64,000 nucleotides of DNA. Source: a virus. The notes under the pieces were generated by a model, which had not been told where the DNA came from, did not search any database, and saw only the letters and a list, made by a program, of their open reading frames with translations. The position numbers and the translations under genes are program-made. Location of the stretch: IMG/VR virus record IMGVR_UViG_3300009103_000003, positions 64,001 to 128,000 of that record; one strand, 5' to 3'. This document shows, piece after piece, positions 2,952-62,818 of the stretch (position 1 is its first letter; each line of letters opens with the position of its first letter).

Positions 2952-3379
2952 CAGACCACTTTCAGTACAATTTCTTTTGGCCCCAGAACTCGCGCTGAGC
3001 CGAATTCCTCTTTTTGCCCGCCCTCTACGTCTGCATGGGCGATCTTACCGGCAACAAGGAGTTGCTCAATAACCTTCGGGTCTATCTTCTTCACCACCCC
3101 TGGCATTGCCAGAACCTCTGGATTTACCTTTGTGGCGTCATAAGTCTTTGTTTTGGGACGAGCCGTTCTGGTGAATGGCCCAATGGATAGCTTGCTGGAC
3201 CCCTCAATATTTCGAACCAGTTGCTTTGCCTCTACAAGATGCGCATTGTACTGATCCATCAATGGGATAAAGATGTCCACGAATTGTGGGTTCTCTTTGA
3301 AAAATTCGTGAACTGCGTCACGGGCTTTTTCAAACTCTGCTACCACCCTACGTACTTCCTTTTGTTCTGTGAAATTCAT
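2951..3379 (-). CDS. Hypothetical protein, possibly Gam/Gp157-like (helical N-terminus, small C-terminal domain)
   Basis: Coupled ORF; the family call is a weak pattern resemblance only. Confidence 0.55.
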   Translation of the reverse strand: MNFTEQKEVRRVVAEFEKARDAVHEFFKENPQFVDIFIPLMDQYNAHLVEAKQLVRNIEGSSKLSIGPFTRTARPKTKTYDATKVNPEVLAMPGVVKKIDPKVIEQLLVAGKIAHADVEGGQKEEFGSARVLGPKEIVLKVV

Positions 3380-4050: not shown

Positions 4051-5416
4051 GACTAACGATTCCTCGCTTAAGTGCGCGGCACATGTTAGTGGCTGGTCCG
4101 AAATAACGATCATCCACCACGAGAACAATGGGGTCCTTCTTGCCGTTGAACTGGCGCTCCACTCGTCCCTTCCCTTGCTGGAAAGCTCCCCACGCCTTGA
4201 ACGGTGTGGTGAATATGAGGGTATCCAATTCGGCAACATCCAGGCCCTCCTTAGCAATCTGGAACGTGGCGAAAGTTACATCTGACTCTCGAATAACACT
4301 AGTGCGTTCTTCACCGGAGGTGTCCCCAGTTACGACGCCGCACGTATACCTTTTCATACGCGTATTGTCGAGGAATTTTGTTTGTAGAATTTCAGGATGC
4401 GCTTTGCTGTGCGCCAACACTAAAATTTTTCGTCCTTTGCTTAACGCATTTTCGACAAGGGCAATGATTCCTCGATTTCGATCATCGTCTTTTGCCAAAT
4501 AGGTATACATTTTCGGCGCTGAAAATTCGCCTGTTCGATCCCGCACCAAGCCCTCATTTACTGGTTGCCGGGTGTCGAACTGCACAAAGTAGATCTTTGC
4601 CTCTAGGTCTCCCGTTAAATCTGTGTGGAAGATCTTGCCTATATGTGAGTAGTACACGTCCTCTAGCCCGTCCTCCCTGTTAGGGGTGGCGGTGAGTCCG
4701 AACCTATTACCTATGAACAAGTTAGCTGTTTGACTAAATGTGCTGGCACTAAGGTGGTGGACCTCATCAAAGATGACTGTGCCAAATCGCTTACGGACCT
4801 CTATGTCGATAGAGTTACTTCTTGCCGCCAAAGTTTGTATCATCGCTAATACAAGCGGTTTATCCCAATCTTCTTTAGGGCCCTGGACAATGCCAATATC
4901 ATCTTCGTCCATGTCAAGAAATTGACAAGCACGGTCCTTCCACTGCTCCAGAAGACCTTTATTGTTTACGATTACTATCGCAGGGTAGCCCCTCTCTGCT
5001 ATCTTTTTGAGAGCTAGAACGGTCTTCCCTTTACCACAGGCAAGGTTCAAGACCCCGTGCTCCGCTTCGGAAAATGCCGCCCACGCCTCCTTTTGTGCGG
5101 CATCCCTGGGCACGATATCACCCTTAAAGGTGACAGGTTCCCACTCCAACTCAATAGCGGGGACCGACCAGTTACCCAGCCGCTCAACCCACTCCTCCTC
5201 AGAGAAGAGGTGCCTAGCAACGACAACATGGTATTGCTCCTGATGAGCTAAAAAGATAGTTTTGACTTCTCCGGTGCGGGCGTTCTCTGTCTTTACCGTT
5301 GCTGCTCGAATAAAGGCGTCCCGATTACCAATCATGGATTTAGGGACCCACATGCTTGCTGAGCAGAACGCCTCATCTCTGACCAGTCGCCCTCCATCAA
5401 TTTCGGGGAGATACAT
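4019..5416 (-). CDS. Superfamily 2 DExH helicase (UvsW/XPB-like)
   Basis: LACGKGKT, DEVHH, GLTATP, EGLD, QQGKGRVER. Confidence 0.9.
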   Translation of the reverse strand: MYLPEIDGGRLVRDEAFCSASMWVPKSMIGNRDAFIRAATVKTENARTGEVKTIFLAHQEQYHVVVARHLFSEEEWVERLGNWSVPAIELEWEPVTFKGDIVPRDAAQKEAWAAFSEAEHGVLNLACGKGKTVLALKKIAERGYPAIVIVNNKGLLEQWKDRACQFLDMDEDDIGIVQGPKEDWDKPLVLAMIQTLAARSNSIDIEVRKRFGTVIFDEVHHLSASTFSQTANLFIGNRFGLTATPNREDGLEDVYYSHIGKIFHTDLTGDLEAKIYFVQFDTRQPVNEGLVRDRTGEFSAPKMYTYLAKDDDRNRGIIALVENALSKGRKILVLAHSKAHPEILQTKFLDNTRMKRYTCGVVTGDTSGEERTSVIRESDVTFATFQIAKEGLDVAELDTLIFTTPFKAWGAFQQGKGRVERQFNGKKDPIVLVVDDRYFGPATNMCRALKRGIVSHGLSFKTVEG

Positions 5417-10329: not shown

Positions 10330-13300
10330 ATGTCGAATGTTTTAGATCCCCAGAGGGTGATGAAGACCCTCGAAGACGGGACGATAAACGAAATCAAAAA
10401 GTTTTTTCCTTTGGTTGGGAAGAAACATACGCTGATCGCCAAGGATGTCTATATTGGCGACCCAGTAGACATTGATGACGTTTCTAGTCAGAAAAAAGCA
10501 AGGCTTCGTGGGAGAACCTGGGCGCAGGGTGTCTTCGCAGACTTTAGTTTAGTCAACAACGAAACCGGCAAAGTAATTAGCACTGCTAATAAGCTAAAGG
10601 TTCTTAACCTACCAAAAATAACGCGAAGGTACAGCTACATTGTAGATGGTACCGAATACCAAGCAGACAACCAGTGGCGACTCAAGTCGGGCGTATATGC
10701 TCGTCGCAAAGCCAATGGCGATCTAGAATCCCAATTCAACCTAGCCCAAGGGCGCGGATTTAGACTAGGATTTGACCCCAAAAAGCGGCGATTCCTTATG
10801 TCCTACGGGACCTCCAACATCCAGCTTCTTCCGGTATTGCAAGCGCTCGGCGTCAAAGACGAAGACATACAAGCTGCCTGGGGTAACGAGCTATATACCG
10901 CTTCACTGGCCTCAAAAAAGCGGGGAGAGCTTGTGAAGCTTTCCAAGGCATTGGATAAGAAAGCTGGAGCAACGAACGACTCAGAGGCTGTGCCGGTAAT
11001 ACAAGCAGCCCTTAAAGAAACAAAACTTCTACCAGAAACAACTGCGATAACTCTCGGAGCCCCCCATACAACAGTTTCTGGTGATGCTCTGTTGGCGTCC
11101 TCCACAAAACTCCTAAACATAAACAAGGGAACCGAACAAGTCGATAACCGAGACGCGCTCCAGTTTAAGGAGCTTTGGGCCATTAACGACCATATCCCGG
11201 AACGAATCGAGAACTCAAAGCGTCGCATCACTTACAAGATGATGAACAATCTCGACCGTAAGGATAATGTGAGGGGGATTGTTACTGGGGACATTTTCAA
11301 TGTACCTATCAAGGCATTTTTTACCTCCACTTCCCTGTCCCAGCAGTCCTCCCAGGTTAACCCTGTAGATATGGTTGGGGGCTTCCTGAGAACCACAATT
11401 ATGGGGACCGGAGGCATTCAAAGCGACTCTGCTATCTCTGAGGAAGCTAAGCTGATTGATTCCAGCTTTCTCGGGTTTATTGATCCGGTGCACACCCCAG
11501 AAGGAAAGCGCTCCGGGATTAGTGGCCATCTTTCGCTAGGCGTACGTAAAAAGGGTACCGTCCCGCTTATCAAGGTATTCGACGTAAAGGCCGGTAAGTA
11601 CGCAGATAAATCACCATCAGAACTAACTTTGGGTAACGTAGCTTTCCCGGACCAATACGAGTTTACCAAAGGTAAATCTCCGAGGCCTATTGGGGACACC
11701 GCCACCGTTATCCCTTCCGGGGGAGGGGACCCGAGCAGGGTTGCATCATCTGACGTGGACTACATTCTTCAGTCTCCGAAACAGATGTTTTCCATCACAG
11801 CTAACCTTGTTCCCTTCCTCCCTTCGGATCAGGCAAACCGGGCAGGTATGGCAACCCGCCATATCGAACAGGCAATCTCCCTAACCAAAGCCGAAGAACC
11901 GCTGGTACAGGTTATCTCAGGCAACCCCAGTGAAAGATATGCTACCTGGGAAAAGATTGTGGGTGAGTTCTTCTCCCACCCCGCACCAGTAAGTGGTTTT
12001 GTTGACTCTGTCTCCAGTTCAAAGATTGTCGTAAAAAACAAGGACGGCAAGAAGCACGAAGTGCAGCTATATGACAACTTCCCGCTAAACGACAAGAAGG
12101 CGTATATTAGCAGTAATGCCTTAGTTAAGAAGGGGGACAAGGTATCTGAGGGGCAGATCATTGCGGACACGAACTTCACCAAGGGCGGAACGCTATCCCT
12201 AGGAACCAACCTGCTTATTGGCTATCTGCCTTACAAGGGGCTGGTTTTTGAGGACGGTATCGTCATCAGTGAGTCTGCGTCAAAAAAACTAACAAGCTCC
12301 CACTTACATAAAGAACGTTCATATGTAGATAAGAATATGGTGGTTGGGCTCAAGAAGTTTAGGGCTAATTACCCAGGCTCCATCTCCGAAGAAAACGCCA
12401 GCAAGCTTGACGCAGATGGGGTTATCAAAAAGGGGCAGACAGTTGACCCTGGGGACACCATCACCACGGTCCTTCAAAAAACAGAACCCTCAAAAGAACA
12501 GCTTCTTCTGAAGGGAATCCATAAGTCCCTTGTTAGGCCGTATAAAAACAAGTCCCTTGTTTGGGACAAACCTTACAGGGGCGAAGTCACCGACGTGGTT
12601 CGCAACGGGCGTGAGATTGTGGTCTATGTCAAGACCGAGGAGCCCGCAGACATTGGGGATAAGCTATCCGGAAGGCACGGCAATAAAGGGGTTATTACCG
12701 CAGTAATACCGGACGAAGAAATGCCGAAAGACTCGGAGGGTAACGCTCTACAGATAATCGTGAACCCGTCAGGGGTTCCGGGAAGAATCAATCCGGGGCA
12801 GGTCCTTGAGACTGCTTTGGGGAATGTTGCCCATAAAAACGGCGAGCCCTACGCAGTGGAGAACTTCCAATCAGATGACCGTAAGAAGGTTGTTCGCGTA
12901 AAGGCTCACACACGGACTATCCAAACAAAGTCTGGGCCTAAGACCGTAGAGGTTAAGGAACATGAACGAGAACTTGGTTACCGGGATGTTGTTGACGCTG
13001 CCCTAAAAAGCGCGAAGGTATCTGAGACAAGAGAATTGTTCGACCCACAGACAGGGAAAAGCCTCGGCTCCGTGCTCGTGGGACATCAGTATGTCCTCAA
13101 GCTAATGCACCAAGTAGACAAAAAGCTGAGTGCTCGTTCCCACGGATATGGGCATGATTACGACGCCAACCTAGTCCCAAAAAGCGGGGGGAAGTCTGGC
13201 GGTGCCCAAAGATTCGGTGAGCTTGGGCTCTACGCAATGTTGGCACACGGAGCCACGGCAAACATCCGAGACGCGTTAACATATAAAGGGGATAAGCAGC

Positions 13301-16300
13301 AGGACGAGGTTTGGACAGCAGTCCAGACTGGGGCTATTTTACCAACCCCTAAACCATCCTTTGCGTACGAAAAGTTTCTCGCCTACATGAATGCGTTAGG
13401 GCTAAATGTTGAAAAAGACGGCAATGGCCTAATCGTCTCACCACTTACAGACAAACAGATCAAGAGTATGTCTAACGGTGAAATAAAAGACGGAAGCCGA
13501 GTCATTCGTGGGAAGGACCTCAAGCCTGAGAAAGGTGGCCTATTTGATGAAACGATCACGGGCGGTCCCGGAGGCAAGAACTGGGCACATATCGCTCTCG
13601 CAGAGTCGCTCCCAAACCCTGTTTTCGAGAAAGGAATCCGCTCAGTTTTAGGGATAACCGGTAAAGAATATGATGCTGTAATAGCAGGTAAGTCCGGGTT
13701 CAATGCTGAGGGAGAGTTGGTGCCAGCCGGGGACGGCGTACTTACTGGGCCCGCTGCAATGGCCGCTCGACTAAAAAGTATCGACGTAGAGAGCGAACTA
13801 GCCTCAGCAAAAGAGGCGATAAAGACAGTCAGGCGAAATGACCTGGATAAGGTCAACAAGAAGATCAAGTATTGCCTGATGCTTCAAAAGAACAAAATCA
13901 GCCCACAAGAGGCATACGTTATTGATAACGTCCCGCTTCTTCCTCCGCTATTTCGACCCATCACAGCTATGGAGGGGGGAGACCTAAATATTGATGGTGT
14001 GAATATGCTCTATAGAGACATCGCACTGCTCAATAAGAAGCTGAAGGAGGCCCAAGGAGTCTTGCCAGAAGAAGCAATAATGAAACTTCGGGAAGATCTA
14101 TACTCCGCAACAGAAGCACTGATGGGCGTTCAGACCATGACTCAGGGAGGGCTGACGACAGACGGTCAACCCAGACCTCCTGGGATTCTGCATATCCTAG
14201 CTGGTAGATCCTCACCTAAGCAGAGCTACTTTCTACAAAGACTGGTAGACCGGAGACAAGACATAAGTATGCGTTCGGTCATTGTCCCTGACATGAACCT
14301 GCACTTAGATGAACTGGGTCTGCCTAGAAAAGGGGCGATGAAGATCTTCCGACCATTTGTGGTTCGGGAACTTGTTAAGATGGGGTACACACCCCTAAAA
14401 GCCAGGACTGAAGTAGAGAAGAACACAAGCCTAGCAAACAAGGCGCTGGACATTGCGGTTGAGAAGCGGCCCGTTATGTTCAAGCGAGATCCCGTTCTGC
14501 ACAAGTTTGGGATTATGGCGTTCAAGGCACGCCTTCATGACGAGTCAGCAATCCATATTCACCCACTTGTTGTTGGTGGGTTCAATGCTGATTTTGATGG
14601 AGACACGATGGCAGTGTTTGTCCCTGTATCGCAAGAAGCAGTGGATGAGTCATATAAGATGATGCCATCAAAGAACCTGTTTAACCCGGCTACCGGGCAC
14701 GTGATGTACCAACCAACTCTTGAGGGACAGTTGGGACTTTACCTCCTCTCTCGATGGGGGAAGAAGTCATCTAAGGCATTCAAGAACTCGAAAGAGGCCA
14801 TTGCTGACGCCAAAGAAGGAAACATCAGCATGACTGATGTCATCCAGGTAGGTGACATTAAAACAACTGCGGGAAGATTATTATTCAATAATATGCTCCC
14901 AAAGAAAGTCCAATCCGATAAATTCCTCACAGACCCGAAAGCTATCGTTGATAAGAAAACCCTTCAGGGGGTTCTTAGGGATGTGGCCACCAAAACCCCG
15001 CAAGAATTCGCGCAAACAGCGGATAGGGTCAAAGACCTTGGTTTTGGCCACGCATACAACATCGGGTTCTCGTTCGCTCTTTCAGACTTCGCACCTTTGC
15101 GGGACATTCGCGAAAAGCACATGACCCTCGCAAAAAAGAAAGAGGCGGTTATTCGAAAGCAGTTATCGATGAAGATGTTGTCCAAAGAAGCTGCCAACGA
15201 TAAAATTGTAAAACTATATGAATCCGCAGATTCGGCCATGACCGCTGATGCTACTGCTTTACTAGATAAGGGCGGGAACAAGCTTAAGCTTATGGAGGCT
15301 GCGGGGGTTAAGCCCTCATGGTCACAGCTTAAACAAATGATCATGGCACCGATGCTAGTTGAAAACGCGCAGGGAAGGGTCATACCTGTTCCCGTGACTA
15401 GCTCCTATTCAGAGGGGCTGAAGTCCTCGGACTACTGGGTAACTACATCGGGCGCTCGTGCGGGCCTTATCAAAAAGGTCCAGTCCGTTCAGAAGCCTGG
15501 GGCGCTTAATAAGCAGATCGCTAATACAACAATATCATACGTAATAAACAATGATGACTGTGGGACTGGGAAGGGGATATCCTTACCGGTATTTGATTCA
15601 GATTTAGTTGACCGGTTTACCGCGAAATCGATTTCAACCGCAGGATTGAAGGTATCTTCCGGGACTCTTATCACCCCTAATCTTCTCTCTAAAATGAAGG
15701 CGTCCAAGGTGGACAGGGTGGTTGTCAGGTCCCCTCTTAAGTGTGAGCAGTCCAAGGGGCTGTGTTCCAAGTGTTACGGTATTACCGATAATGGGGCTCC
15801 CATAGCTAAGGGAACCAATATCGGATTAATTGCCGGGACGTCAATTGGTGAACGTGGGACACAACTTTCTATGAAGGCTTTCCATACTGGCGGTGTAGCT
15901 GGGGGAGGAAGCTCGGTTGTTGGTGGTATTGACCGGGTCTCACAATTGCTGAAGATGCCTGCACTATTGGCTGGCTCTGCGACACTGTCTCCGGTTTCTG
16001 GAGAGGTGACCTCCGTAACAAAGAGTGAGATTGGTGGCCACGATGTGGTTATCGGCAACCAAGAGGCGTACATCCCCGGCAATCTATCGGTTTCCGTAAA
16101 GAAGGGCGAGAAGGTACGCAGAGGTCAACAAATTTCTAGTGGGGTCATTAACCCGCACGATCTTCTTGAGAAGACAAACATTGAGACAGTTCAGCGGTAT
16201 CTTGCGGATGAGATTCACAAGGTCTACGCGAAAGAGGGCATCAAGAAGAGAAACGTTGAGGTGGTAACAAAGGCTTTAACGAATCTGGGCAGGGTAATGG

Positions 16301-16605
16301 ACCCCGGCGACTCCTCTAAGTTTATTCGGGGTGACTACATTTCGCTTTCTCATGCAAGCGCTGTGAACAAAACTTTGAAAAACCCCATAAAAACATTACC
16401 TGTACTGCGTGGTGTAGAGACCCTGCCGCTAGATCAGACCACAGACTGGTTGGCGAGACTACAATACAGAAAACTAAAAGAGACGTTTATTAGGGCCGCA
16501 AATGAGGGGTGGGAGAGTGATATTCACGGCCTCCACCCAGCGCCTGGACTAGCCTATTCTGCTGAGTTTGGTAGGAAGGGTAAAACTACAGGGGGGCCCT
16601 ACTAA
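10330..16605 (+). CDS. rpoBC: Single-chain fused beta-beta' (double-psi barrel) DNA-directed RNA polymerase
   Basis: Beta motifs HTPEGKRSG, PFLPSDQANRA, GLVFEDGIVISES, GDKLSGRHGNKG, GGAQRFGE. Beta' motifs KPEKGGLF, PLLPPLFRP, FNADFDGD, bridge helix SGARAGL, trigger loop GERGTQLSMKAFHTGG. Confidence 0.97.
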   Translation: MSNVLDPQRVMKTLEDGTINEIKKFFPLVGKKHTLIAKDVYIGDPVDIDDVSSQKKARLRGRTWAQGVFADFSLVNNETGKVISTANKLKVLNLPKITRRYSYIVDGTEYQADNQWRLKSGVYARRKANGDLESQFNLAQGRGFRLGFDPKKRRFLMSYGTSNIQLLPVLQALGVKDEDIQAAWGNELYTASLASKKRGELVKLSKALDKKAGATNDSEAVPVIQAALKETKLLPETTAITLGAPHTTVSGDALLASSTKLLNINKGTEQVDNRDALQFKELWAINDHIPERIENSKRRITYKMMNNLDRKDNVRGIVTGDIFNVPIKAFFTSTSLSQQSSQVNPVDMVGGFLRTTIMGTGGIQSDSAISEEAKLIDSSFLGFIDPVHTPEGKRSGISGHLSLGVRKKGTVPLIKVFDVKAGKYADKSPSELTLGNVAFPDQYEFTKGKSPRPIGDTATVIPSGGGDPSRVASSDVDYILQSPKQMFSITANLVPFLPSDQANRAGMATRHIEQAISLTKAEEPLVQVISGNPSERYATWEKIVGEFFSHPAPVSGFVDSVSSSKIVVKNKDGKKHEVQLYDNFPLNDKKAYISSNALVKKGDKVSEGQIIADTNFTKGGTLSLGTNLLIGYLPYKGLVFEDGIVISESASKKLTSSHLHKERSYVDKNMVVGLKKFRANYPGSISEENASKLDADGVIKKGQTVDPGDTITTVLQKTEPSKEQLLLKGIHKSLVRPYKNKSLVWDKPYRGEVTDVVRNGREIVVYVKTEEPADIGDKLSGRHGNKGVITAVIPDEEMPKDSEGNALQIIVNPSGVPGRINPGQVLETALGNVAHKNGEPYAVENFQSDDRKKVVRVKAHTRTIQTKSGPKTVEVKEHERELGYRDVVDAALKSAKVSETRELFDPQTGKSLGSVLVGHQYVLKLMHQVDKKLSARSHGYGHDYDANLVPKSGGKSGGAQRFGELGLYAMLAHGATANIRDALTYKGDKQQDEVWTAVQTGAILPTPKPSFAYEKFLAYMNALGLNVEKDGNGLIVSPLTDKQIKSMSNGEIKDGSRVIRGKDLKPEKGGLFDETITGGPGGKNWAHIALAESLPNPVFEKGIRSVLGITGKEYDAVIAGKSGFNAEGELVPAGDGVLTGPAAMAARLKSIDVESELASAKEAIKTVRRNDLDKVNKKIKYCLMLQKNKISPQEAYVIDNVPLLPPLFRPITAMEGGDLNIDGVNMLYRDIALLNKKLKEAQGVLPEEAIMKLREDLYSATEALMGVQTMTQGGLTTDGQPRPPGILHILAGRSSPKQSYFLQRLVDRRQDISMRSVIVPDMNLHLDELGLPRKGAMKIFRPFVVRELVKMGYTPLKARTEVEKNTSLANKALDIAVEKRPVMFKRDPVLHKFGIMAFKARLHDESAIHIHPLVVGGFNADFDGDTMAVFVPVSQEAVDESYKMMPSKNLFNPATGHVMYQPTLEGQLGLYLLSRWGKKSSKAFKNSKEAIADAKEGNISMTDVIQVGDIKTTAGRLLFNNMLPKKVQSDKFLTDPKAIVDKKTLQGVLRDVATKTPQEFAQTADRVKDLGFGHAYNIGFSFALSDFAPLRDIREKHMTLAKKKEAVIRKQLSMKMLSKEAANDKIVKLYESADSAMTADATALLDKGGNKLKLMEAAGVKPSWSQLKQMIMAPMLVENAQGRVIPVPVTSSYSEGLKSSDYWVTTSGARAGLIKKVQSVQKPGALNKQIANTTISYVINNDDCGTGKGISLPVFDSDLVDRFTAKSISTAGLKVSSGTLITPNLLSKMKASKVDRVVVRSPLKCEQSKGLCSKCYGITDNGAPIAKGTNIGLIAGTSIGERGTQLSMKAFHTGGVAGGGSSVVGGIDRVSQLLKMPALLAGSATLSPVSGEVTSVTKSEIGGHDVVIGNQEAYIPGNLSVSVKKGEKVRRGQQISSGVINPHDLLEKTNIETVQRYLADEIHKVYAKEGIKKRNVEVVTKALTNLGRVMDPGDSSKFIRGDYISLSHASAVNKTLKNPIKTLPVLRGVETLPLDQTTDWLARLQYRKLKETFIRAANEGWESDIHGLHPAPGLAYSAEFGRKGKTTGGPY

Positions 16606-58120: not shown

Positions 58121-59136
58121 ACTGCCACCCCAACCGGCTCATCTTCATCCTCGTCGTCTTCTCCAAACTCTGCTGCTAGGATTTTCTGGACTTCATCGTC
58201 CTGTTCTTCGTCGTCCTTTTTGCTTCCGACGTCGTAGTACAGTCCAGACAACTCATCCAAAATTTCCTCTGTGCTCATTTCTTTTGCGTACCACTTAGAG
58301 TGATATTCAATGACCTCTGTAAGATCTACGATGTTTTCTTCGTAGAGTTCTGCCAGAAGCTCTAGTTCATCGGGCAACCGCAGAGACTCTTTTACGTACT
58401 CAACATTCGCGATCAAGTCATCTTCGTCCGAAGCGCTTTCGCTTTTGTCGTCTCCAGCTTCTTTGCTTTGATGACCGCCGTCCCAGCCGATGTAGTCGTC
58501 GTCCCAGTGGCCGAAGAAGCTCTGGTGGCCGTTTACTTTTCCCGTGTATGAACCGGTAGTGTACTTTCTTGTGTGTTTGACAACATTTAGTTGCGTAGGC
58601 GCGGGTCGAGAGACGTGGTCTTCAACCATCTCCTTTGCCCAGCCGTCCTCCAAGATGCTTACCTGATCAACAGACCATCCACACTTTTCAAAGGAAAACC
58701 TGAACGGGTTGTACATATCTACCCGGACATTGAGGTCTCTCTTTTTGTTGGAGATTACGCTAATACAGACCTTATCAAAATTGAATTCTTCAATTTGTTT
58801 CTCGTCTGTTCCGGAATGACCGGTATCCATATTTACATGGGAGTGCCACCATACACAGATTTGGTCTGAACTTATCCCCTGGTCCCTAAGCTCCAAAGAC
58901 ACATCTGCATAAGAGTCCATATCGAAGACAGTACTGCCCCCAGTGCACTCTTGGTCTGGAACATAGAATTCTAGAACATAGAAAGGCTCTTTAATGCCCC
59001 ACTCATTTCGTTGAGCATCTGTGGCAATAATACCAATTGCTGATATCTCAATTGGGCACTCATCAGTCAATGCTGTCATTTGTTGATATGCTTTTTGTGT
59101 AAATCGGACGGTTGGCTTTGTTAGAACTTTAGTCAT
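58117..59136 (-). CDS. JAB/JAMM metallo-isopeptidase with acidic tail (likely start ATG 59136)
   Basis: Glu in PIEIS; HSH-VNMDTGH-S-GT-D fits HxH-x7-S-x2-D. Confidence 0.92.
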   Translation of the reverse strand: MTKVLTKPTVRFTQKAYQQMTALTDECPIEISAIGIIATDAQRNEWGIKEPFYVLEFYVPDQECTGGSTVFDMDSYADVSLELRDQGISSDQICVWWHSHVNMDTGHSGTDEKQIEEFNFDKVCISVISNKKRDLNVRVDMYNPFRFSFEKCGWSVDQVSILEDGWAKEMVEDHVSRPAPTQLNVVKHTRKYTTGSYTGKVNGHQSFFGHWDDDYIGWDGGHQSKEAGDDKSESASDEDDLIANVEYVKESLRLPDELELLAELYEENIVDLTEVIEYHSKWYAKEMSTEEILDELSGLYYDVGSKKDDEEQDDEVQKILAAEFGEDDEDEDEPVGVAV

Positions 59137-60238
59137 TAGTTCCTCCTGGATTGGTTTGTTGTTGAGCGAAACGGGCTGCATACTCGTTTCTTGAGATGCA
59201 GGGTGTTCCGTTTATTCCTCTATATGATGCTGGCGGGTTTATCGGATGAACGTGATGAACCATGCAGCAGCTATGGCAGTGACCACAGCCGCTAAGGTCT
59301 TCTTGTTCTTGGATAGTTCCGCATTCGTTGCATCTAGGACACTCACAATCCGCCATGATGTGGTTCCCTGACTCACATACAGCGTTGTCCCATCTGTTTG
59401 GGCACCACGCAGATAAGTGTACGTACGGGTTCTCTCTATTATAATGTTGTAGAAAGTCCGTGAGCGTTTCGATTACTTTAGCGATATCCTTAACACCCAT
59501 ATCTTGTATTAGGGTGGGTTGGATATTGCCTAGGCATGCTGCACCATGCTCGTTTAGATGTGGGTGCGGATAGTTTCTCCTGTTACCCTCATCCGGGTTA
59601 ACGCTTTTGCAGTATACAGTGACTCGGTTTCCTCGAACGGGGTCACCGTTGTAAGTTACAGAGCAATCAAATTTACCAAAGTTGTGTGGGAGAACAGATC
59701 CGAAACCATCTTTTATGAAGATATCGTTAGTTCTCCAAGTTAGTTTTTGCTCATCTGCACTGATTGTGGAGAACTTGATTGGGACACGCGTATCGATGAG
59801 ACCCTCAATGAAACGAATCATCAACGCTCTTTTTTCGAAACCATCCTCTGTGTAGATTTCTCCGTTCAACTCCAAGCGCCTTTTTATCTGCGCAATAGCT
59901 CGCTCACACCTTTCCGCTCGGTCTCTTGCCTGAGAAGACTTTGAACTTCGGTCCATAAGCTTTTGTCTGGCAGCACGCGTTCTCGCTCTGGCACGGTCGT
60001 ACTCTGCCTCCTTGGCAGCAAGGCGTTGCTGGGCTCGGGTATAGATAGCCGACCTAGCAGAGACCTTATTGTTGTGCATTCGTTCTGCGGCACGCTCTCT
60101 TTCTAGCGCGGCAGACAATTTTATAAGCTCTTTTGAAGCAAGACTTTCTGAGTCGGTGATGATGGTCTGAAGTTGTTTGGCAATCAGAGCGTCGTCACCA
60201 TTAAAAGTTAGTTCGTAGTTTTTTGCTGTTGATGCCAT
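59129..60238 (-). CDS. E2/UBC-like protein with N-terminal coiled coil and C-terminal Cys/His cluster (likely start ATG 60238)
   Basis: YPHPHLNEHGAACLG resembles UBC HPN..G.xCL; lies between Ubl and JAB genes. Confidence 0.78.
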   Translation of the reverse strand: MASTAKNYELTFNGDDALIAKQLQTIITDSESLASKELIKLSAALERERAAERMHNNKVSARSAIYTRAQQRLAAKEAEYDRARARTRAARQKLMDRSSKSSQARDRAERCERAIAQIKRRLELNGEIYTEDGFEKRALMIRFIEGLIDTRVPIKFSTISADEQKLTWRTNDIFIKDGFGSVLPHNFGKFDCSVTYNGDPVRGNRVTVYCKSVNPDEGNRRNYPHPHLNEHGAACLGNIQPTLIQDMGVKDIAKVIETLTDFLQHYNRENPYVHLSAWCPNRWDNAVCESGNHIMADCECPRCNECGTIQEQEDLSGCGHCHSCCMVHHVHPINPPASYRGINGTPCISRNEYAARFAQQQTNPGGTND

Positions 60239-60249
60239 AGTTTCTCCAC

Positions 60250-60286
60250 AAAAAAATAGCGGATGCCCCCCGAAGGGGACACCCGC
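60250..60286 (-). terminator. Intrinsic terminator between the Ubl and E2 genes
   Basis: GCGGGTGTCCCC-TTCG-GGGGGCATCCGC followed by TATTTTTTT on the minus strand. Confidence 0.88.
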
Positions 60287-60296
60287 CACTTTTATT

Positions 60297-61257: not shown

Positions 61258-61878
61258 CTATCGCTTCTGAGAGGGGTGGTCCTTAAATAAAACCGAATAT
61301 TTTCTTTTTAGGAATCGAATATGTTTTTTGACGCTATTTGAATACCTCGCCGGTCGAGTACATTTCCTACACTGGGAATCGGTACCACACTTGTCGAGGC
61401 ATTTATTTTGGACATACTTCCAGCCTTGCCCGCCGTTGTAGCAGGCAAACACTTTGGTACCACGACACTGCCTATAATTTTTCCGAAATAATGAGATTAA
61501 GAGAAGAGACGCTTTCATATTATTCTCTACGACAAGCATGTCCTTCTCACAGTCATTAAATCCGAAAACCTTTTTTAGTCGTTTTCTGTGGATGCGGCAG
61601 TTAACCTGCATCAGCCCATAATCACCGGTGTGGCTAATAGCCCGATCAGTGAGACCGGACTCAACCATCCCAATACCGATAATTTCGTATGCGTCATACT
61701 CGCCAGGAATAAGCGGGAGAACCCTCTTGATCTGAGAGATATGTCTTTCGCTCAGAGACTTTGGGGGATTCCTTCCGGAACCACTGTACTTGGCCTTTTT
61801 TACTTGGGCCATAGAAATACTTAAACAAGCAGCGCTCATAAAACCGAACGCAAAAAGTGTTAGTAAAGTTCTCCTCAT
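61258..61878 (-). CDS. Lytic transglycosylase (SLT) with N-terminal signal/anchor
   Basis: IGMVES (catalytic Glu), GDYGLMQVN, ACYNGG; hydrophobic N-terminus. Confidence 0.85.
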   Translation of the reverse strand: MRRTLLTLFAFGFMSAACLSISMAQVKKAKYSGSGRNPPKSLSERHISQIKRVLPLIPGEYDAYEIIGIGMVESGLTDRAISHTGDYGLMQVNCRIHRKRLKKVFGFNDCEKDMLVVENNMKASLLLISLFRKNYRQCRGTKVFACYNGGQGWKYVQNKCLDKCGTDSQCRKCTRPARYSNSVKKHIRFLKRKYSVLFKDHPSQKR

Positions 61879-61889
61879 TATACTCTCCT

Positions 61890-62316
61890 GGTTACGTTTC
61901 CGTTGCCCCCAGCAGTCCGCACAGACAAGCTATTGCTTCTTGCTGTATCCCAACAAGAAACTTTCCATTCGGTGCGAAGCTACAGGATTCAAGGCCCTGT
62001 TTTGGCGGGCCAGCCTAGTCAAGCATTTCTCAGAAACAATGGTGAAACCAACTTTGGATTTACACTGAAACCTACTTACTCTTAGAGCGGTCTTTTCCCG
62101 ACTGTCAGCGTATCTTTCCCACGAATGGGACTGGCTACGCGCAGACAATGAAGCTTCTTTAACATCCGATCATAAGATGAACCTAGGGCCTGACAGGTGT
62201 GCCCCTGTTGTTTGAATTGCCACCTACCTAGGATGGCAGCGTAAAAACAACTTTGGTGACAGTGACCTCGGTTTCCGTGTCATCATGAAAGGAACTAACG
62301 TAAATTAGCCTTCATC
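61890..62316 (-). ncRNA. Candidate structured non-coding RNA or long structured leader (about 430 nt)
   Basis: No credible ORF; several hairpins, one with a UUCG loop, one with G-U pairing on the minus strand; promoter-like GGTATAAT immediately upstream. Confidence 0.55.
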
Positions 62317-62322
62317 AGTGTT

Positions 62323-62330
62323 ATTATACC
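62323..62330 (-). promoter_or_regulatory. Putative -10 element GGTATAAT
   Basis: Consensus TATAAT directly upstream of the structured region; -35 weak. Confidence 0.55.
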
Positions 62331-62380
62331 TTAGTAATTCTGTAATTTGCACTACATCCGGCGAACGCACACTCCTTGTG

Positions 62381-62818
62381 TTAGGGCCTCGTAAACCTGA
62401 GTCCGCCGATAAGTATGGACTTTTTTATAGACATAGAGGCTTTCTTAGACATAGCAGCCAACGCCTTTCGGTCCCACTCAGGAGTCACCTCGTCTTTTAC
62501 AGGTGAGAGCGGCTCCCTATAGTCAGCTACCATTTCCTCGCCCGGAGCGATATCTTTAGTGGCATAGGCAATAAGTTTTTTGCCGGATTTCCGTAAACCC
62601 ACATTGGCCACAGGTGAGTGGTTGAAGTAATCCCCCAGAAGGGTTTGGTGATAGTCCTTATAAACATCACCCGTGGGCTTACCGCTCTTTCTTATTAAGG
62701 CAACGCCGAGGACTTCCCCAGCCTTGTGGCCGCGCACACTGAAGCTCCCGGTCCCATCGATGGGGGACCGCTTGTGCTTTATCCGACCGTTTTCAACATG
62801 AGATAACATACTGTCCAC
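62381..62818 (-). CDS. SET-domain protein (putative lysine methyltransferase)
   Basis: SPIDGTGSF, YFNHSPVAN, ATKDIAPGEEMVADY. Confidence 0.88.
   Translation of the reverse strand: MDSMLSHVENGRIKHKRSPIDGTGSFSVRGHKAGEVLGVALIRKSGKPTGDVYKDYHQTLLGDYFNHSPVANVGLRKSGKKLIAYATKDIAPGEEMVADYREPLSPVKDEVTPEWDRKALAAMSKKASMSIKKSILIGGLRFTRP

Follow-up and report, generated by a model that had tools for sequence, protein, structure and literature searches.

What occupies the 502-nt gap (61879–62380) between a SET-domain ORF and the ORF of a lytic transglycosylase in this phage genome, and what might it do there? The DNA analyzed, referred to here as the window, is a stretch of 64,000 nt representing bases 64001–128000 of a virus genome record (IMGVR_UViG_3300009103_000003) that is complete at 181,199 bp and bears direct terminal repeats. 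A first-pass annotation of this DNA had proposed a structured RNA with its own promoter upstream of the transglycosylase gene and had read it either as a new non-coding RNA or as a cis-regulatory leader. The core common to both readings, namely a structured RNA on the strand of the transglycosylase gene behind a conserved promoter, was borne out by the present analysis.

Genome setting of the locus

The genes around the gap are all located on the minus strand. The upstream neighbor of the RNA is the SET-domain ORF (62381–62818, 145 aa), and the first gene after it encodes the lytic transglycosylase, a protein of 206 aa (61258–61878) with a Pfam SLT domain match (E = 2e-10), hereafter referred to as SLT. 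The N-terminus of the SLT protein has a hydrophobic signal-like segment, and at least eight cysteines were found to be conserved among 28 homologs; together these two features suggest a disulfide-bonded periplasmic enzyme. The SLT gene is followed in the operon by genes for a soluble 119-aa protein and a 169-aa protein, a terminator and a fourth gene. The gene next after SLT codes for a soluble acidic protein instead of a holin, so that the locus does not represent a standard lysis cassette. Pfam analysis of the genes downstream of SLT gave only a weak Prok-JAB match (E = 0.07).

The terminator within the operon is a strong intrinsic one (60250–60287, minus), lying after the 169-aa gene and directly adjoining the ribosome site that serves the fourth gene. 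It has a GC-rich stem of 10–16 bp followed by at least seven U, and was present not only in the window but also in each of the ten relatives with the RNA that were examined (among them L002 at 4496–4581, L003 at 4407–4465 and L010 at 3253–3335, the L-numbers being labels of the relatives' contigs). It probably sets the ratio of upstream to downstream products. For the ORF at 59129–60289 (minus), the start called by the program (GTG at 60289) falls within the terminator; the true start is likely to be the ATG at 60238–60236, located 7 nt past a GGAG and giving a protein of 369 aa.

The phage also encodes a tail-sheath gene and a large terminase, the latter being less than 30% identical to that of any cultured phage. 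A 2091-aa protein (10330–16605, plus) is matched along its length by several phage 'RNA polymerase beta subunit' families and looks like a fused beta/beta'-like polymerase, so that some promoters of the phage may escape the host enzyme.

Promoter

The −10 box GGTATAAT, which had been reported to lie just upstream of the region, was found at 62323–62330 (minus) and follows the pattern GGTATAA[TG]. An upstream promoter element, GCAAA (62346–62350, minus), is located 17 nt before it. The full layout, with GCAAA, 17 nt, GGTATAA(T/G) and then A-N3-TG, aligns in 10 of 10 copies of the locus that span this stretch, both boxes being conserved in all of them. Judging from the position of the −10 box, transcription would start approximately 6–7 nt past it, near 62316.

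The motif GCAAA-N16–18-(G)GTATAA[GT] occurs seven times on the minus strand of the genome, with four of these occurrences outside ORFs of at least 70 codons, and on account of this repetition it looks like a promoter class of the phage. The other sites, with the sequence GCAAA-N16–18-(G)GTATAAG, are all outside the window (G000:C1 169146, 159887, 149663, 133988, 132407, and 53847; minus), and three of them precede stretches of 273, 244, and 165 nt that are devoid of ORFs of at least 70 codons. These stretches could hold further structured RNAs. The RNA element described here is single-copy in this genome, and its Pb and Pd motifs (see below) are absent at the other six promoter-motif sites.

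Copies of the RNA and their distribution

Homologs were collected by searching IMG/VR and a collection of 5.8 billion proteins with the SLT protein, after which the encoding contigs were retrieved. This yielded twelve distinct copies of the RNA, namely those of the window, L002, L003, L010, L021, L023, L024, L025, L026, L027, L029, and L033, with L030 being the same copy as L010, L034 the same as L027, and L023 being cut at its 5' end. The element has a length of approximately 440 nt in the window (61879–62316, minus) and of 310–440 nt in the relatives, whose SLT proteins are 42–74% identical to that of the window. Its position between the conserved promoter and the SLT start is fixed in 12 of 12 copies. 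Nucleotide identity is recognizable only between close pairs, such as the window and L002 (81% over 182 nt), and a short set of motifs is common to all copies. Two subtypes were distinguished, the first consisting of the window, L002, L021, L023, and L024, and the second of L003, L010, L025, L026, L027, and L029, along with L033, which was assigned by its motifs.

Pattern scans of IMG/VR for the two subtypes detected no copy away from an SLT gene. A candidate from these scans, L066, was rejected as a chance match in a GC-rich coding region. Exact 16-mer and 20-mer scans of IMG/VR returned only the contig of L002 plus chance matches, and a gapped core pattern applied to metagenomes returned only known contigs plus seven chance matches. 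Neither BLASTN of the region nor TBLASTN of the SLT protein gave a match among the phage records of cultured phages. A profile of the SLT protein run against 185,579 bacterial and archaeal genomes found only three distant matches (32–48% identity), so that by this measure there is no host or prophage copy of the SLT gene or the RNA in the prokaryote genomes searched. The motif pair is also absent at the distant SLT loci of other phages (L037–L059). The RNA occurs only in a clade of uncultured marine phages with genomes of approximately 150–185 kb. One relative, L003, has a tRNA gene (17–90, plus; Rfam 67 bits) approximately 2.5 kb upstream of the RNA.

The earlier impression that the region matches no familiar RNA was upheld by database searches. 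No match was found at gathering thresholds in the whole window with Rfam 15, the 4227 models of which include riboswitches, ribozymes, RNase P, tmRNA, 6S, SRP, ROOL, GOLLD, and OLE. Admitting matches up to E = 10 for 61700–62600 gave only a spurious lncRNA at 12.5 bits, and admitting matches up to E = 1 for nine other copies gave nothing inside the element. ARAGORN predicted no tRNA or tmRNA gene in the window. A literature search found no paper on this RNA, the alignments of approximately 10,000 viral candidate RNAs (PMC10690425) being outside this comparison. By these searches, the RNA family is new and clade-specific.

Folded architecture

From 5' to 3', the RNA is composed of a 5' domain, helix Pa, the motif UGAC, helix Px with Pb and inserts, the motif AGG, helices Pd and Pe, and the ribosome site of the SLT gene (all coordinates that follow are on the minus strand). 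The local features listed in the first-pass annotation were all in place when the minus strand was read, although not all of them turned out to be conserved. The variable 5' domain (62141–62316) starts with a predicted 5'-terminal hairpin, P1 (62285–62316), and folding predictions place the inferred 5' end in a stem for seven of the 11 full-length transcripts (those of the window, L002, L003, L010, L021, L026, and L029). Two further hairpins of this domain, UGCCA/UGGCA (62218–62238) and ACAGG/CCUGU (62193–62208), are not aligned between copies. The former had been noted before and is present in the sequence of the window, but it lies in a stretch that L002 lacks. An H-type pseudoknot had also been suggested; both of its helices can be read at 62182–62208, but the crossing GGGC/GCCC helix is absent from L002 and L021. 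For a supposed complementarity of the two ends of the region, no conserved pairing was found. The palindrome CCUAGG occurs twice in the 5' domain of the window (near 62231 and 62186), and over the 12 copies CTAG is approximately 2-fold and CTAGG approximately 5-fold commoner in the RNA element than in the genome.

Pa (62108–62140) is a GCGUA/UACGC stem around UCCCA-UUCG-UGGGA, with the inner hairpin at 62117–62130 and with its 3' strand adjoining UGAC (62104–62107). The latter is unpaired and near-invariant, being present in 10 of 11 copies and replaced by CGAC in L025. It is followed by AGUC (62100–62103), the 5' strand of Px, whose partner is located at 62017–62020. The 3' strand of Px, GACU, occupies 62012–62020 together with the AGG and the 2-nt linker that come after it; UAGG is found in 11 of 12 copies, with UAAG in L023. 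Enclosed by Px are Pb (62088–62100), a 3-bp CGG/CCG hairpin with the A-rich loop GAAAAGA, and a variable insert (62020–62087) comprising Pb2 (62079–62087) and the domain Pc (62020–62078), which correspond to RNAalifold helices 3 and 4. Pd (61993–62011) is a GGCCC/GGGCC stem; its apex, GCCAAAAC, is conserved, and the consensus for the family is GC-YRAA-AC. Pe (61903–61992) is a long irregular 3' hairpin that is closed by UUG/CAA and has an 11-bp hairpin (61936–61960) as its apex. The ribosome site, as read from the sequence (61876–61889), consists of the Shine-Dalgarno motif AGGAG (61885–61889) and the SLT start codon (61876–61878).

The insert within Px varies from 1 nt in L025 to approximately 140 nt in L026 and L033. 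L025, with no insert and with Px and Pb merged into one hairpin, represents a natural minimal version, and L026 a natural variant without Pe. The common core thus defined consists of Pa, UGAC, Px with the Pb loop, AGG with 2–4 nt, and Pd, and is at least 100 nt distant from the SLT start.

Covariation evidence

A plain MAFFT alignment of subtype 1 was submitted to RNAalifold, which gave 44 pairs in six helices. Of the cells of these pairs, 85.8% were paired, compared to 27–43% with the partners slid by 1–3 columns, and double changes were seen in 25 pairs, compared to 3–5 when slid, with none of 500 shuffles being as good; these values are somewhat favored by the derivation of the structure from the same alignment as tested, with the margin still large. 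Subtype 2 gave 26 pairs, 12 of which have compensatory changes. As MAFFT was unable to align the Pb and Pd loops of both subtypes in one register, rule-based scripts tied to the invariant motifs were used for the helices that are shared across subtypes.

Pa was recovered as RNAalifold helix 1, with double changes in six of its seven pairs. Among the copies it is a helix of 5–8 bp with unrelated sequences, which ends exactly at UGAC in 11 of 11 testable copies (3 of 5000 permutations were as good). Pb is paired in 33 of 33 cells, its middle pair being seen as G-C, C-G, A-U, and U-A across all copies. Its loop has the sequence GAAAGA, GAAAAGA, GAAGAGA, or GAAAAGC, with the pattern GAA(A)(A/G)G(A/C) holding in all copies. 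The 5-bp stem of Pd occurs as GGCCC/GGGCC, GCCUU/AAGGC, GGCGU/ACGUC, and other variants (1 of 5000 permutations was as good). Its apex is GCCGAAAC, with GCUGAAGC in L027 and L033, where the facing C and A become a C-G pair and the UGAA tetraloop remains.

The long-range helix Px pairs the 3–4 nt right after UGAC with the 3–4 nt ending at the U of UAGG. With the register held fixed, all 22 cells of positions 2 and 3 are paired (G-C/U-A/A-U and C-G/U-A, respectively), which was matched by 0 of 20,000 permutations. On the MAFFT alignment A7, Px was 84% paired, compared to 16–50% when slid, and its covariation score was reached by 0 of 500 shuffles. Compensatory changes were also seen in RNAalifold helices 3 and 4 of the Pb2/Pc region in subtype 1, and in Pe (helix 6), where nine of 19 pairs have double changes. 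In subtype 2, a hairpin of different sequence occupies the place of Pe. Sequences that could pair with the Pd loop (GUUUC) or with UGAC (GUCA or GUCG) were found at no fixed place and at approximately chance frequency.

Three of the hairpins picked out earlier therefore belong to helices that recur with compensatory changes: TCCCA-TTCG-TGGGA within GCGTA/TACGC is Pa, GGCCC/GGGCC is Pd, and the long hairpin that had been placed at 61937–61959 is the apex of Pe. The check that had been suggested, a collection of homologs examined for covariation, produced 12 copies with supported helices. The first-pass annotation had also staked its RNA on a folding energy better than that of shuffled sequence, on covariation, and on there being no conserved ORF to explain the region. 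The latter two were found to hold, but the energy is barely beyond that of shuffles: the minimum free energy of the minus strand is −137.5 kcal/mol (z = −1.61), with eight of 100 shuffles folding as well, and z is −0.32 for the plus strand. Folding energy alone is unremarkable. The helices of the minus-strand RNA contain G-U pairs, which places the RNA on the minus strand only. It is close to certain that the structure is real, the element being a conserved structured RNA that is supported by covariation.

A sister lineage without the RNA

In a sister lineage, represented by L028, L060, L061, and L062, the promoter and the SLT gene are present without the large RNA between them. The SLT proteins within this lineage are 75–77% identical to one another. 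Between the same promoter and the SLT ribosome site, the leader here has only a hairpin that resembles a terminator and carries a U-run, with this arrangement located at 2414–2500 in L028, 1849–1936 in L060, 1620–1707 in L061, and 3381–3498 in L062. The upstream gene in this lineage is very large, its product exceeding 1600 aa in L028, and gives a LigD_N match. The internal terminator was found at the same place in L060 and L061, the two contigs that reach that far, with a stem of 6–10 bp and nine U. As the operon is present without the RNA in this lineage, the RNA is dispensable for the operon, and as the internal terminator is kept there, it is independent of the RNA.

Possible function and alternatives

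The element is tentatively interpreted, with somewhat less than an even chance of this being correct, as a leader acting in cis, which would bind a factor and govern how transcription proceeds through the operon. Transcription would begin at the GCAAA-N17-GGTATAAT promoter, and the RNA would form the first part of an operon mRNA that continues into SLT, the 119-aa protein, and further genes. Together, the invariant strands at the junction and the two loops rich in A could dock a protein, RNA polymerase, or a small ligand, and the occupancy of this site would set the reach of transcription through an operon with a strong internal terminator, in the manner of lambda nut sites, HK022 put RNA, or a transcriptional riboswitch. 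Whether the element acts in cis is regarded as about evenly balanced, and control of elongation as the mechanism is a guess to which only a minor probability is given. A more specific version is speculative and on balance doubtful: the core would be a new aptamer or polymerase-docking RNA that senses a signal or loads a factor and thereby sets, co-transcriptionally, the output of the periplasmic muramidase and the downstream genes.

Control of elongation in cis is favored because the RNA is promoter-proximal, a terminator lies within the operon, a translational platform was not found, and the Pb loop resembles boxB. The SLT ribosome site has ordinary predicted accessibility and is not consistently paired across copies, and since it is not consistently sequestered in these folding predictions, a simple translational switch is unlikely. 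No conserved alternative pairing of the core with a terminator or with the ribosome site was detected. The elongation-control reading is weakened by the RNA-less operon, which keeps its terminator; this mildly argues against a dependence of read-through on the RNA. Large variable domains at the periphery, seen more often in large RNAs that stand alone than in switches, would also speak against a cis role, as would the distance of at least 100 nt between the core and the SLT start.

The main rival to the cis-acting leader, considered possible but rather unlikely, is that a stable RNA is cut or terminated from the operon transcript and acts in trans as a scaffold, decoy, ribozyme, or self-assembling particle. 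A multi-domain RNA of 310–440 nt, with its small invariant core and large variable periphery, would suit such a role, as would the existence of the operon without the RNA in one lineage. The inferred 5' end, stem-paired in most predicted folds, would favor stability, and a U-rich run that follows the last hairpin in several subtype-2 copies (L003, L025, L029, L026, and L010) could end the RNA. In the subtype of the window, however, the interval from the RNA to the SLT start holds neither a U-tract terminator nor a conserved second promoter. The invariable placement directly before the SLT gene in all 12 copies and the lack of a ROOL, GOLLD, or OLE match also count against an RNA acting in trans.

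It is improbable that the element is a passive folded 5' UTR, serving without any sensing as a stabilizer or insulator against decay that depends on the 5' end. The paired 5' end predicted for most copies and the ribosome site being left accessible would be expected of such a UTR, but it would have no need of the invariant unpaired UGAC and AGG or of the conserved loops, which have been kept despite fully diverged helices.

There is very little chance that the region codes for a small protein, such as that of the 72-codon TTG frame (61930–62148, minus). This frame is open in the window and free of stops in L002, with 73% identity over 52 residues, but it has no start codon in L002 and a 1-nt indel shifts the frame upstream. 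Translations of the window and L002 are equally alike in one sense and three antisense frames, which indicates conservation of nucleotides and not of protein. There is also no reading frame common to the more distant copies, and Pfam found nothing in the small-protein frame. An element acting as DNA, such as an array of protein sites, a replication origin, or a packaging site, is just as improbable, as despite the 2- to 5-fold enrichment of CTAG and CTAGG the compensatory changes keep pairing rather than sequence, the helices hold G-U pairs that exist on one strand only, and the orientation behind the promoter is fixed.

Relation to known RNAs and significance

The large ornate non-coding RNAs of bacteria and phages include ROOL, GOLLD, and OLE (PMC12286853, PMC5737381). 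The RNA of the SLT leader resembles these in its length of several hundred nt, its many covarying helices, its occurrence in uncultured or phage DNA, and its discovery by comparative analysis. It differs from them in being smaller, in having no Rfam 15 match, in not lying beside tRNA genes, in being always placed between a promoter and a protein gene, and in having no conserved terminator of its own.

The nut sites of phage lambda, composed of boxA and the boxB hairpin, and the put RNA of HK022 are promoter-proximal elements that let the polymerase pass terminators. The RNA described here is likewise promoter-proximal, is predicted to be in cis to a long operon with a strong intrinsic terminator, and has conserved single-stranded motifs beside short hairpins with purine-rich loops. 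The boxB loops of the lambda nut sites are purine-rich, with the sequence GAAAA or GAAGA, and the Pb loops GAAAGA, GAAAAGA, and GAAGAGA recall these, an analogy that may serve as a lead. Unlike the nut and put elements, this RNA is 5 to 10 times larger and has a long-range helix and variable domains, and no N-like protein was identified. Rfam gave no match of this RNA to a known antitermination element.

Transcriptional riboswitches offer another comparison, with the ydaO class, which responds to c-di-AMP, occurring ahead of cell-wall hydrolase genes. The RNA shares with riboswitches approximately 20 invariant nt at junctions and loops, freely covarying helices, and a tolerance of variable inserts, and it shares with the ydaO class a place in the 5' leader of a gene for a cell-wall enzyme. 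A covarying core (Pa, Px, Pb, and Pd) surrounds the invariant UGAC, AGG, and loops, as in riboswitches. It is unlike them in matching no model, and no conserved expression platform was found, whether a shared terminator or a masking of the ribosome site.

The late leader of lambda, with the promoter PR', the 6S RNA, and the terminator tR', lies ahead of the lysis genes, including that of the R transglycosylase. Similar to this arrangement, the locus has a constitutive-looking promoter, a leader, and then a lytic transglycosylase gene, with a terminator-like hairpin and U-run before the gene in the RNA-less lineage and in some subtype-2 copies. It differs in that the subtype of the window is without a leader terminator and that soluble proteins, not a holin or spanin, come after SLT. 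No Q-like factor is known for the SLT leader, and the lambda leader is not known to be a conserved complex fold.

It is rare for a large RNA to combine many covarying helices with a small invariant core, and those whose function has been solved have usually proved to be ribozymes, sensors, or assemblies. New findings are the helix Px and a minimal core, along with deletion variants that occur in nature, a lineage that has a leader hairpin in place of the RNA, and a promoter class seen genome-wide. With a defined core, the minimal version of L025, the variant of L026 without Pe, and the RNA-less lineage, the function of the RNA is directly testable. If the core does act as an aptamer or polymerase-docking RNA, it would represent a new class of riboswitch or RNA antiterminator in phage.
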